In this document: positions 1-7,808 of the stretch, in pieces
Layout: every line of letters begins with the position of its first letter
Numbering within the stretch: the first letter of the stretch is position 1
IMG/VR virus record: IMGVR_UViG_2908572912_000003
Source of the DNA: a virus
Lineage: Duplodnaviria > Heunggongvirae > Uroviricota > Caudoviricetes
Length of the DNA stretch: 38,820 nucleotides
Strand: one strand, 5' to 3'
Program-made: the position numbers and the translations under genes
The notes under the pieces: model-generated
Databases searched by the model: none
Told to the model about the DNA's origin: nothing
What the model saw: only the letters and a program-made list of their open reading frames with translations

Positions 1-273
1 CTACCAAGGAGCGCCACAGCGCGAGGAGCTGGCCGAGGTGGATGTGGACTGGCTGATCGCCGAGCGTCCCGGCAAGGTAAAAACCTTGAAGCAGCATCCG
101 CGCAAGAACAAAACGGCCATCAACATCGAATACATGAAAGCCAGCATCCGTGCCAGGGTGGAGCAGCGGTACGGCATTTCCCACGGAATACCGTCTTCCA
201 GAATGCCGACCACGGCCACATCGGGAAAACCGGCAGAACGGTAAATCTCACCGGGCTGGGGAAAATCAAACAT
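1..273 (-). CDS. Hypothetical protein, 5' part only (runs off the left edge); likely next gene of the satellite's leftward operon
   Basis: ATG at 273-271 overlaps the TGA stop (268-266) of the upstream minus-strand gene in an ATGTTTGA coupling arrangement; frame stays open to position 1. The competing plus-strand frame cannot be excluded. Confidence 0.3.
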
Positions 274-553
274 GCGTCCTGTCTCCCCGGTCTTTCTGCT
301 GGGCGAGAAAATCGCGGCACAGGCCTTTGGCTTTCAGCTCATTCAGCACAAAATCAATATCTTCATTCAGGTAGCTGAAAATATGCGGAATGTAGAGCTG
401 ATGCAGGCCGGAGAGTTCACGGTGAATCAAATCACCCCCAACAAACTGGGATACGGCGCTGGCGCGGTTGAGCTTATGGTAAGCCTCAATGCTGAGGTGT
501 TCACGGGCGTCATGACGCGCTGAGACGGTCTGAGGGGCTTTTTTATTACGCAC
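266..553 (-). CDS. Hypothetical small protein (95 aa) of the satellite leftward operon
   Basis: GTG start at 553-551 preceded by GGAGG at a 6-nt spacing; the start lies 5 nt upstream of the Icd-like stop, consistent with translational coupling; charged, protein-like composition. Confidence 0.45.
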
Positions 554-743
554 GGGACACCTCCACCACCGGCAGACGGGCAGCAAGGGAGAGCACATAG
601 TCACGGACAAGGGAACGGCGGGCACTGCGTTCATCACCGGCGACGGTGCGAAGCATGCAGATACGGGGATGACGGTCTGCGCGACGGACAGCCGCAAACA
701 CAAAGACAAATTCAGGGTGTGAGGGGGTAAGGGTTGTAGCCAT
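546..743 (-). CDS. icd: Host cell division inhibitor Icd-like protein (P1 Icd / P4 Kil-like)
   Basis: 65-aa [24 protein letters not shown]...; ATG at 743 preceded by AAGGAGG at an 8-nt spacing. The frame is open upstream to an ATG at 881 ([14 protein letters not shown]...), so a longer Ash-family product (546..881) is an alternative. Confidence 0.55.
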
Positions 744-1096
744 GATGGCAGCCTCCTTGAAGTAACAGTTACAGCTACCACTGGAGTTCCTACGCTCATG
801 GGTGGTAGCCCGGACGGGGGTAGGAATACCGGCCTTCAAGGAAACCGGCCAGCCCGAAGGCTGCCCCGCCCGGACCACCATTATCTGACAGAGGCTACGG
901 TTTAAAAAACACAGCCAGAAAAACAGGTGTGCCGAAGCAACGACGTAAAAAAAGACGCATGGCGCGTCATATGTCGCCTTGAAGTAACTCGGGTTCCTAC
1001 GCCCGGCTGCCGATTTTGCGGCAGCGGGAAAACTATATCCGCAAATGCCGGAAAAAGGCAAGCCAGAAAAAGGGACTTTTTGCAGGATGGGTATCA

Positions 1097-1363
1097 TCAC
1101 GCGTCGTACCCCCGTTTGCGTCCGGCAATGCGCCCGGCCATCCATGCGGTGACTTCAGAGTGCAGCCAGGCCACATTTTTACCGCCAAGACTCACCTGCG
1201 GCGGAAATTCCCCCTTACGGATGAGTTCATAGATGGTCGAGCGTGACAGGCCGCACAGGTGCATCACTTCCGGCAGACGTAAAAAACGCTCCTGCGTGAT
1301 GTCCGGCAGCGGCATCAGTGGCGTCACAGGGGCGGGAGACGGGGAAGAAAAAACAGCTTGCAT
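1097..1363 (-). CDS. alpA: AlpA-family phage transcriptional regulator (Vis/excisionase-like helix-turn-helix)
   Basis: 88-aa ORF containing ...[45 protein letters not shown]..., as recalled for AlpA/Vis-type regulators; ATG with GAGGT upstream. Confidence 0.8.
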
Positions 1364-1641
1364 CGGGCTACCTCGTTAATGTCCATACAGCACCGGATAA
1401 GTCCGTCCGGCTTCGGGTAGCGCTTTATTTTGTGAATATTTTCAGCAGACGCAACAGGGGGGATTTGTTCCGGCAGCCTTACAATGGCTGTGTGTTTTTT
1501 GCACATCAGCGCCAGATAGCTTTAAAACGCTCTGGAAGGAGCTGGAAAAAATTATAGTGAAATGCAAATTGTTTTTTCTTATTTATTTCAGTTAATTAAT
1601 AAAAATAAAAAGTAATAAACAGCACAAAAAGTCCATCCACG

Positions 1642-1746
1642 GGTGAACAGTGGTGAACAGACGGTGAACAGTCATTACTGCGATTGTTCACCCTTTAACT
1701 TACTGTATTACTTATCTTTTTTCTTAAGGTGAACAGAGGTGAACAG
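1642..1746. repeat. P4-type iteron cluster (ori/crr-like alpha-protein binding sites)
   Basis: Five direct copies of GGTGAACAG (1642-1671 and 1728-1746) plus one inverted copy (TGTTCACC at 1685-1692) in the AT-rich alpA-sid intergenic region; the core matches the recalled P4 type I iteron TGTTCACC. Confidence 0.6.
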
Positions 1747-1824
1747 TAAAATATAAAAAAACAAACAGTAAGCCGGTTTTTCCTGCGACCTTTTCCTGGC
1801 TTGCCGGTCTGAGGATGAGTCTCC

Positions 1825-1842
1825 TGTGTCAGGGCTGGCACA
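1825..1842 (+). promoter_or_regulatory. Putative Ogr/Delta activator site (TGT-N12-ACA) of the sid late promoter
   Basis: TGT gtcagggctggc ACA dyad lies about 80 bp upstream of the sid ATG, which would place the start site near 1888 if centred at -55; a TCACAAT -10-like element follows. Confidence 0.4.
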
Positions 1843-6368: not shown

Positions 6369-6393
6369 TTTTTCGCATTCCTTTTATTGTTTT

Positions 6394-7596
6394 TTAATTA
6401 CTGGCTGATAGTGACTTAACGTAATTCCCCCACCAACTCATTAGCTCTATCCTTTGTTCTAAATAAATTGAACGATTATAAGCTCTACGTACTTCATTTT
6501 TATCTGTGTGCGCTAATGCTGACTCTATGACATCCGCATTCATCCCCGCTTCATTCATCGCTGTACTCGCAATAGACCTTAAACCATGAGCAACAAGCTT
6601 TCCACCATATCCAATTCTCTTCAGCGCAGCATTAGCCGTCTGGCTATTCATTGGTTGCTTTGGGTCATTCCTGCTCGGAAAAACGTGCTCTCGATTGGCA
6701 CTAATAGGTTTCATCACTTCGAGAATCTCTAATGCCTGAGTTGAGAGAGGAACTATGTGCTCACGTTTAGCCTTCATTCGTTCGGCCGGAATCGTCCATA
6801 GCTTTGTTTCGAGATCGATTTCAGCCCACCGAGCACCGGAGGCCTCAGAAGGGCGCACAAGGGTCAGGAGTTGCCATTCGATTAGACAGCGAGTCGGAAC
6901 AGACAGATTTGACATGACTAAAGAACGCATCAGCTTCGGCAATTCTTCTGGCCGCAACGTCGGCATGTTTTGCTTTTTGGGCTTCTCAAAGGCCATGCCA
7001 ACACCGGATGCTGGATTGGCATCAATCAGACCAGTGTTTACGGCATAAATCATGATTTCGTTAATACGCTGCACCAGTCGACGTACAGTCTCAAGCGCCC
7101 CACGTGCTTTTATTGGCTCAAGGGCTTCAACCAAAGTTCGGGCTTTGATTTGCTGAACGGGGATCTCACCGATGGCAGGGAATACATCTTTCTCCAGTGA
7201 ACGCCAAATGTCTTTTGCGTAATCAGGGGTAACGCTTTTGCTTTTGAGATGGAACCAGTTAGCGGCGACCGTTGAAAAAATACTGTCCAGAGCGATTTGC
7301 TGCTGTTCCTCTGCAACTTCGGCCTGAATTTGTGGGTCAATTCCGTTGGCTAACAAGGCAAGGTAATCCGCTCTTAACCCTCGGGCGTCAGCAAGTGAAA
7401 GGGCGGGGAAAGCACCTAGCCCCATCATTGTCCGCTGTTTTGTCGCCGGACGTTGATAACGGAAACGCCAGAGCTTTTTCCCGCTGGTTTTCACTATCAG
7501 GAAAAGGCCATCGCCATCATGCAGCGTTAGATCCTTCTCTAACGCTTTAGCGCGCAGAACTTCGGTGTTGGTCAGGGGGCGTGTTGTCCGTGCCAC
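6394..7596 (-). CDS. int: P4-type tyrosine integrase
   Basis: 400 aa; N-terminal arm-binding region (GLFLIVKTSGKKLWRFRYQ) and C-terminal catalytic region (HGLRSIAST...AHTD...RAYNR); GTG start with AAGGAG upstream; adjacent to the att core. Confidence 0.9.
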   Translation of the reverse strand: MARTTRPLTNTEVLRAKALEKDLTLHDGDGLFLIVKTSGKKLWRFRYQRPATKQRTMMGLGAFPALSLADARGLRADYLALLANGIDPQIQAEVAEEQQQIALDSIFSTVAANWFHLKSKSVTPDYAKDIWRSLEKDVFPAIGEIPVQQIKARTLVEALEPIKARGALETVRRLVQRINEIMIYAVNTGLIDANPASGVGMAFEKPKKQNMPTLRPEELPKLMRSLVMSNLSVPTRCLIEWQLLTLVRPSEASGARWAEIDLETKLWTIPAERMKAKREHIVPLSTQALEILEVMKPISANREHVFPSRNDPKQPMNSQTANAALKRIGYGGKLVAHGLRSIASTAMNEAGMNADVIESALAHTDKNEVRRAYNRSIYLEQRIELMSWWGNYVKSLSASN

Positions 7597-7618
7597 TGTG
7601 GTCGCTCCTTCATGAATT

Positions 7619-7666
7619 GGTATACGCTTTTAGGTATACATCCTACCGTATACCTAAACGTATACC
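7619..7666. promoter_or_regulatory. Cluster of GTATAC-core repeats in the integrase upstream region (possible Int or regulator binding sites)
   Basis: GGTATAC at 7619-7625 and 7633-7639, and CGTATACC at 7647-7654 and 7659-7666, within 70 bp upstream of the int start. Confidence 0.3.
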
Positions 7667-7712
7667 AATAATCACCGGATTTAGCCGGATGTTCTCGGAC
7701 AACGACAGACAC

Positions 7713-7744
7713 AAAAAAGCCCGCAGGGCTTATGCCGTGCGGGC
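7713..7744 (-). terminator. Rho-independent terminator following the tmRNA-like 3' end
   Basis: GCCCGCA...TGCGGGC hairpin (7719-7744) with an A-run on the plus strand (7713-7718), giving a U-tract on the minus strand just downstream of the att core. Confidence 0.5.
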
Positions 7745-7780
7745 TTTCTGTACTTCACTGGACGTATCCGGATCATGATT

Positions 7781-7808
7781 TGGTGGGCTGGCGGGAGTTG
7801 AACCCGCG
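7781..7808 (-). other. Attachment-site core: 3'-terminal 28 nt of a tmRNA (ssrA)-like gene, not a complete RNA gene
   Basis: Minus strand reads CGCGGGTTCAACTCCCGCCAGCCCACCA, nearly identical to the recalled E. coli ssrA 3' end (GCGGGTTCAACTCCCGCCAGCTCCACCA); the sequence 5' of it is AT-rich and not RNA-like. Confidence 0.55.

Follow-up and report, generated by a model that had tools for sequence, protein, structure and literature searches.

Can a P4-like satellite still be mobilised when the prophage beside it is not of the P2 type? This question is raised by IMG/VR virus record IMGVR_UViG_2908572912_000003, a stretch of 38,820 nucleotides (nt) from a Caudoviricetes virus, called here the window, whose left end holds a relative of the satellite phage P4 followed by a prophage of another kind. 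The first-pass annotation of this DNA described the satellite as largely intact, noted that its hijack module is built for P2-type helper phages and supposed, from the lack of such a helper in the adjacent prophage, that the helper sits elsewhere in the genome or is of a different type. The answer proposed here is another one: the element probably derives from a common Escherichia coli P4-like satellite, one whose integration site is the 3' end of ssrA, the transfer-messenger RNA (tmRNA) gene, and has recently been truncated and immobilised.

With NC_001609 as the P4 reference, the half of the element that runs from eps to cos (window 163-3956) matches P4 positions 7785-11624 with 96.9% DNA identity, and five full-length proteins are 97.6-99.5% identical to P4's own proteins, to which all such values refer (Table 1), so the reading of the element as a P4-type satellite was borne out. 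Pfam and PHROGs assignments are consistent with the identities of Eps, Vis, Sid, Delta and Psu. Gene order, the CI immunity RNA, the ori1 octamers, the late promoter dyad and the position of cos beside psu are likewise those of P4. The type-1 octamers of ori1 are the binding sites for alpha, and the dyad upstream of sid is taken, from what is known of P2 and P4 late promoters, to be a late promoter element responsive to Delta and Ogr. The features listed in the first-pass annotation (sid, delta, psu, cos, iterons, AlpA and integrase) were correct, and its Icd-like gene stood in part: a 199-amino-acid (aa) open reading frame (ORF) exists at 546-1145, but it overlaps the CI (C4) RNA gene on the same strand and the Icd-like model is matched by its last ~50 residues only, so this protein call is doubtful. 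Six of the seven core markers of de Sousa et al. 2021 were detected in the element, the seventh, alpha, being absent.

The differences from P4 lie at the ends and in the cargo. P4 integrates at leuX, whereas the element is found at ssrA and its integrase, with the Pfam domains Arm-DNA-bind_3, Phage_int_M and Phage_integrase, shares no more than 38% identity with P4 Int; the P4 hotspot holds gop-beta-cII, whereas here it holds a single gene; the cos 19-mer is unlike that of P4 at 3 positions; and alpha, orf106/cnr, crr and the distal attachment (att) site are missing. The same integrase lies directly downstream of an intact tmRNA gene in other E. coli, and the element is therefore one of the common P4-like satellites borne at ssrA.

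The loss is visible at the left end of the element, where the beginning of orf151 runs into IS5. When mapped onto a full IS5 found in another sequence (L020), this joint falls 298 nt inside IS5, with no terminal inverted repeat there; the IS5 piece retained measures 898 nt (window -732 to 165), and the 298 nt lost include one terminal inverted repeat. A simple IS5 insertion in orf151 was considered and ruled out, the joint being internal to IS5. Because of this internal position, the GCA microhomology and the missing inverted repeat, this is a deletion joint and not an insertion.

The fusion ORF created by the joint (1-273) was found in one indexed contig, L011 (Logan run SRR6799402), which is 100% identical to window 1-10273 and extends 2.1 kb past the start of the window, through 898 nt of IS5 into a GntP-permease pseudogene (GntP') and then LutC. 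The contig traverses both the IS5/orf151 joint and the IS5 end unbroken, which argues against ambiguity arising from other IS5 copies. Neither orf106, alpha nor crr was found in the 2.1 kb beyond the window start. As to the cis sites of replication, the ori1 octamers are present and crr, which in P4 and in an intact relative (L008) lies downstream of alpha, is absent. A second ssrA core was not found in the window or in this contig with up to 3 mismatches allowed, although the distal core of the intact relative described below is degenerate, so that a very weak copy could escape. The description of the satellite as largely intact was therefore not upheld, since orf151 breaks off at codon 37, where a truncated IS5 is joined to it, and since the identical contig runs into unrelated genes; truncation affecting alpha or other essential genes, named in the first-pass annotation as what would speak against it, was seen as far as the data reach.

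The IS5/GntP' joint was also found in 86 complete E. coli genomes. Among 5426 complete E. coli genomes no record has the IS5/orf151 joint and none covers at least 80% of the whole region, and the exact 42-nt sequence of this joint was not found in metagenome contigs. The IS5-GntP'-lut module was also tried as a marker of the ssrA locus and rejected, as strain EC21Z-147 carries it in an island near yagU.

What the element was like before the deletion can be seen in an intact satellite of another E. coli (L008, GCA_013021625.1), which shares 99.96% identity with window 163-7809 (2 mismatches, 1 gap) and continues with the full orf151, orf106, a 777-aa alpha, two octamer-bearing crr repeats, GGTATAC arm-type repeats and a degenerate distal att site. 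The full element has ~11.3 kb, of which 7,647 bp are kept in the window and ~3.6 kb are gone. The loss of the replication genes appears to be recent, because the intact twin is 99.96% identical. Intact E. coli satellites at ssrA (L008, and also NZ_MUKG01000003 and NZ_CP027140 of Rousset 2022 Table S1) resemble the element at 99.9% over the same interval and share its cargo protein, cos allele, integrase and att site; they differ in keeping orf151, orf106, alpha, crr and the distal att site, where a truncated IS5 is found here. The locus is a clean and datable example of immobilisation, with an IS-linked deletion in one strain and a nearly identical intact twin in another.

The course of events may be pictured as follows. 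A deletion with its ends inside IS5 and at codon 37 of orf151 would have removed ~3.6 kb, and with them what followed of orf151 together with orf106/cnr, alpha (the primase-helicase), crr and the distal att site. Left behind would be the hijack genes eps, delta, sid and psu, along with the immunity RNA, vis, ori1, the P2-type cos, the cargo gene, the integrase gene and the att site proximal to it. Replication of P4 needs alpha and crr, and excision by Int and Vis needs both att sites. From this established P4 biology, the element should not replicate without alpha and crr, nor should it be excised without a second att site; as all three are missing, no circular cos-bearing genome would arise to serve as substrate for the P2 terminase, and the element should not be mobilisable. 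In the presence of a P2-like phage, the remnant could nevertheless act in trans, derepressing it through Eps, activating late genes through Delta and forcing small capsids through Sid and Psu, and the cargo gene should still be expressible from the remnant. An SfV/e14-like prophage would later have integrated at ssrA and moved the satellite away from the tmRNA gene, so that the satellite would now be second in a tandem array.

The element is thus of an ordinary, already catalogued kind, in a truncated state. Lacking alpha, it falls under Type B#02 of de Sousa et al., a P4-like variant that they report to be frequent (PMC8628076); defective P4-likes with their defence genes preserved are also on record, in cryptic islands (PMC13586616). 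Both resemble the element in the absence of alpha, in six of seven markers and in the defence hotspot that is kept; they differ from it in that here the cause of the loss is visible as an IS5-linked deletion junction. Related to this, another strain (L007 8773-13215, CP034784.1) has the integrase and the 743-aa cargo gene alone left beside ssrA, followed directly by csiD, and represents a more advanced decay stage of the same satellite in which the cargo has been kept.

The right boundary given in the first-pass annotation was confirmed: the homology to ssrA-borne P4-likes stops at 7809, within the last ~29 nt of ssrA, and this core (7781-7809) is common to the satellite and to the neighbouring prophage. 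No whole tmRNA gene was found in the window by ARAGORN or Rfam. A match of ~170 nt (7638-7808) to a feature of a Salmonella record labelled by Rfam score was taken up as a possible large ssrA fragment and set aside, the alignment showing that the last ~29 nt alone are ssrA. The GGTATAC-type repeats between the integrase and the core are putative arm-type sites of this integrase.

If the satellite has been immobilised, it may be asked why its remnant persists, and the cargo gene of the psu-int hotspot comes into consideration. Its product, WP_086676113, gave no significant match in Pfam, NCBIfam, PADLOC, PHROGs or PDB sequences. The exact protein is indexed in 97 blocks of a contig collection and, in the places inspected, it occurs mostly in complete satellites with the order ssrA-int-cargo-psu-delta-sid-vis-ash-eps-orf151-orf106-alpha. 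A word-indexed search gave 24 clusters of homologues of ~745 aa, and a profile search gave 1768 representatives at E ≤ 0.001, of which 716 at E ≤ 1e-10; many of these relatives share the C-terminal half only (profile ~380-720), and they likewise lack Pfam domains. In an alignment of 20 homologues, C545, C548, C565 and C568 (a CxxC..CxxC zinc ribbon), D638, E651 and K653 are invariant and D636 is nearly so. An AlphaFold model (predicted local distance difference test, pLDDT, 84; predicted template modelling score, pTM, 0.83) has structural matches to the nuclease domains of Can2, Can1, AF1548 and FokI.

The cargo has a PD-(D/E)XK nuclease domain with D636/D638..E651-x-K653, for which catalysis is predicted. 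Its predicted fold is closest to the CARF nucleases Can2, Can1 and Card1, and a CARF-type sensing of nucleotides is putative. Unlike these CRISPR ancillary nucleases, the cargo is twice as long, with an additional winged-helix region and the zinc ribbon; it has no Pfam sequence match (the DUF1887 and CARF models did not appear), and no type III CRISPR system or cyclase lies near it.

Homologues are also found outside E. coli. One that is 56% identical occupies the same int-proximal hotspot slot near delta and sid in Pectobacterium fontis (L133 4417-13228), in a P4-like element where int, delta, sid, vis and alpha were detected beside the cargo homologue and psu was not. Others come from Bacteroidota, Acidobacteriota, Armatimonadia and Legionella.

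In Table S1 of Rousset 2022, WP_086676113 stands as a hotspot gene by itself, listed as 'hypothetical', and it is not among the systems tested there; genes of this sort in P4 hotspots mostly prove defensive, as did 6 of 8 that were tested (PMC13586616). The cargo is a candidate single-gene defence nuclease. It may even be, with a chance slightly short of even, that it is a single-gene anti-phage system composed of a variable N-terminal sensor and a conserved winged-helix/zinc-ribbon/PD-(D/E)XK module, that it stands for a large and wholly unannotated superfamily (the 716 representatives mentioned above, from Enterobacterales to Bacteroidota, Acidobacteriota and Legionella), and that the truncated satellite is becoming a fixed defence island. 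This uncharacterised nuclease, which published hotspot surveys list as 'hypothetical', is the sole research lead offered by the locus.

Compatible with truncation is the view that the remnant has been domesticated, being kept for its cargo and possibly also for the interference of Eps, Delta, Sid and Psu with P2-like phages. The cargo ORF is intact and identical to copies in many genomes, the satellite beside csiD has been reduced further to integrase and cargo, and the defensive hotspot genes and the defective P4-likes with defence homologues reported in PMC13586616 point in the same direction. Nevertheless, the identity of 99.96% to the intact twin makes the deletion too recent for intact ORFs to show selection, and the defence role of the cargo is that of a candidate; domestication is for these reasons regarded as possible rather than probable.

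The explanation by truncation has to face several points that weigh against it. What lies outside window position 1 was read from a short-read Logan contig, possibly assembled from the very reads behind the window; since IS5 is repetitive, the passage from it into GntP' could be a choice of the assembler; had an IS5 inserted in orf151 undergone a small internal deletion, alpha would still lie past it; alpha could also survive elsewhere after a rearrangement, the sequence of this strain that was read being the window and a 16-kb contig; and every retained gene is intact, which is also consistent with a functional element. On these grounds it could be supposed that the satellite is essentially complete and mobilisable, that IS5 merely inserted in the non-essential orf151 with alpha just beyond it, and that a P2-like helper sits elsewhere, all the more so as the cos allele is common to real P2-like phages and the view past the window start depends on one contig. 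This is improbable, since a joint lying 298 nt inside IS5 and devoid of a terminal repeat does not correspond to a simple insertion, since the identical contig passes unbroken over the joint and the IS5 end into GntP' and LutC, and since the distal att core was not seen.

The variant cos of the truncated satellite brings the question back to the helper. As stated in the first-pass annotation, its cohesive-end 19-mer, GGCGTGGCGGGGAGAGCAT, has exactly 3 mismatches to that of P4, GGCGAGGCGGGGAAAGCAC (16 of 19 positions match). The exact 19-mer occurs in 109 IMG/VR loci: 85 bear psu and are P4-like, 16 have a portal or terminase of the P2/186 type and 8 are unclassed. In most of the 16 P2-like loci, portal or terminase lies within a few hundred bases of cos, and the right flank TGCGCGC (19-mer and flank, window 3957-3982) also follows the 19-mer in the P2-like loci with this allele. 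The cos of a 186-like Eganvirus, GGCGTGGCGGGGAAAGCAT, is one base off. Because the exact 19-mer is found in P2-like and P4-like loci alike, the three mismatches are a natural allele common to a subset of helpers and not a mark of decay, and the earlier suggestion that the variant may reflect helper specificity agrees with its place beside the portal and terminase of P2-like loci. Matching helpers exist, since 16 P2-like phage loci carry the exact 19-mer. A P2-type cos is present in the satellite, as a putative substrate for cleavage.

The cos allele travels together with the hotspot cargo. In a comparison of loci among L003-L010, L015, L018 and L001, GGCGTGGCGGGGAGAGCAT was found in 7 of 7 P4-likes with the 743-aa cargo and the P4 allele in 3 of 3 with other cargo. 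This co-variation fits cos as a boundary of the exchangeable hotspot, as has been reported (PMC9122126).

Besides, the search of the window by tblastn (E ≤ 1e-3) for the P2-type portal (Q), terminase (P), sheath, tube, gpU and gpD found none of them, the sole match being that of Ogr to Delta. P4-like satellites use att sites of their own, whatever the helper, and the helper may be supplied by another part of the genome or by an infecting phage. As the two integrate without regard to each other, it is normal that no P2-type helper lies next door; this is uninformative on helper use, and the conclusion drawn earlier from the helper-less adjacent prophage carries no weight. The first-pass annotation was right that the hijack module is made for P2-type helpers; Sid, Delta and Psu are near-identical to those of P4. 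Of 5426 complete E. coli genomes, 866 contain a sid-delta-psu module. P2-like loci abound in this species: Rousset et al. counted 18,150 of them, and 5,251 psu-int loci, in 20,125 genomes (PMC9122126). No published frequency was found for P4-likes in genomes without a P2-like prophage. As a puzzle of satellite and helper, the case carries little weight.

That the satellite uses a non-P2 helper, such as the neighbouring prophage, whose head is of the HK97 type and whose tail is of the Mu type, has next to no likelihood: physical adjacency is all that speaks for it and follows from the use of the ssrA core by both elements, other strains have this prophage end beside unrelated elements, Sid, Psu and Delta share 97.6-99.5% identity with those of P4, the cos 19-mer and flank are those of P2-like phages, and the neighbour lacks genes for the small terminase, the large terminase (172 nt left), lysis, replication and the repressor.

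Table 1. Features of the window, in order of position (identities are to the P4 proteins; empty cells, no value).
Feature	Position	Strand	Remarks
Internal fragment of IS5 (ISKpn26-family) transposase gene	1..165	+	100% match to IS5 insH
Deletion junction, IS5 interior to P4 coordinate 7785	163..165		3-nt GCA microhomology
First 37 codons of P4 orf151	166..273	-	read through into IS5 as 90-aa fusion ORF (1-273)
epsilon (helper derepression protein)	266..553	-	95 aa, 98.9% to P4 Eps; PF25738 E = 8e-51
Phage_ASH/Icd-like ORF (doubtful)	546..1145	-	199 aa, historical 'cI/ash' ORF
CI immunity RNA	798..885	-	Rfam C4 antisense RNA, 86 bits
isrK small RNA match	948..1025	-	Rfam
a1/b1 target sites of C4 RNA	986..1038	-	Rfam; with isrK match, left-operon leader
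vis = orf88 (AlpA-family excisionase, regulator)	1097..1363	-	88 aa, 98.9%; PF05930 E = 7e-21
ori1	1642..1745		six type-1 octamers TGTTCACC/GGTGAACA; all six P4 octamers present
TGT-N12-ACA dyad	1825..1842	+	upstream of sid
sid (capsid size-determining external scaffold)	1915..2649	+	244 aa, 98.8%; phrog_6165 E = 4e-116
delta (double Ogr-like zinc-finger late activator)	2646..3146	+	166 aa, 97.6%; two Ogr_Delta fingers
psu (capsid decoration, Rho antagonist)	3220..3792	+	190 aa, 99.5%; PF07455 E = 1.3e-88
cos cohesive-end 19-mer	3957..3975	+	GGCGTGGCGGGGAGAGCAT; left flank 100% P4
psu-int hotspot cargo WP_086676113	4137..6368	-	743 aa, low GC
Tyrosine integrase, ssrA-specific CP4-57 IntA-like type	6394..7596	-	400 aa
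GGTATAC-type repeats, x4	7618..7669		two direct, two inverted; motif pair recurs distal to crr in L008
ssrA att core	7781..7809	-	last ~29 nt (24-29) of ssrA, one base deleted
DarT (PF14487)	7938..8561	+	
NADAR-DarT1 antitoxin (PF22397)	8565..9254	+	
Arm-DNA-bind_2 integrase of neighbouring prophage	9287..10456	-	
IS1	14073..14840		replaces ~12 kb, cI/cro to all but last 172 nt of large terminase
IS4-family (IS421-like) transposase	24758..25876	-	just after tape measure gene
Acyl_transf_3 protein	within 33348-38820		right-end cluster
PD-T4-3	34967..35791	-	
5-methylcytosine (m5C) methyltransferase	36102..37577		
Type II restriction endonuclease	37612..38820	-	

The end of the neighbouring prophage occupies the sequence from 7810 rightwards, and its homology in other strains begins at the shared ssrA core, at ~7786. 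The same prophage end is found beside different P4-likes and other elements in other strains; from this and from the start of its homology at the core, the prophage appears to have integrated at ssrA and displaced the satellite. In another E. coli (L019 1-8853), the end of a P2-like prophage (sheath, tube, tape measure, gpU, gpD and Ogr) adjoins the same end with DarT, NADAR and integrase, so that helper-type phages do sometimes sit beside it. The DarT/NADAR pair lies at the extreme end of the prophage, with the prophage integrase on one side and the ssrA att core on the other; as this slot is occupied in another locus (L005) by an AAA_15 protein and a Dam-type methyltransferase, it is a second cargo hotspot.

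The first-pass description of the neighbour as a defective prophage with an HK97-type head and a Mu-type tail agrees with its genes and with an IS1-associated deletion. A complete copy that is 98% identical, annotated by the Prokaryotic Genome Annotation Pipeline (PGAP), has a P27-family small terminase, large terminase, portal, HK97 protease and capsid, and for the tail a sheath, tube, tape measure, DNA circularization protein, baseplate V, gp46 and J; in the prophage of the window Pfam recognises Phage_portal, Phage_capsid, sheath, DNA_circ_N and Baseplate_J. Judged against complete prophage copies (L132 and L012), the genes gone at IS1 are those for the repressor, replication, Q, lysis, HNH and the small terminase. 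Strain HCM-21C-2, whose prophage is 98% identical, carries the IS421-like insertion as well. At the right end, window 33348-38820 is a cluster of accessory and defence genes, whose Acyl_transf_3 protein is possibly an O-antigen acetylase, by analogy with serotype-converting phages.

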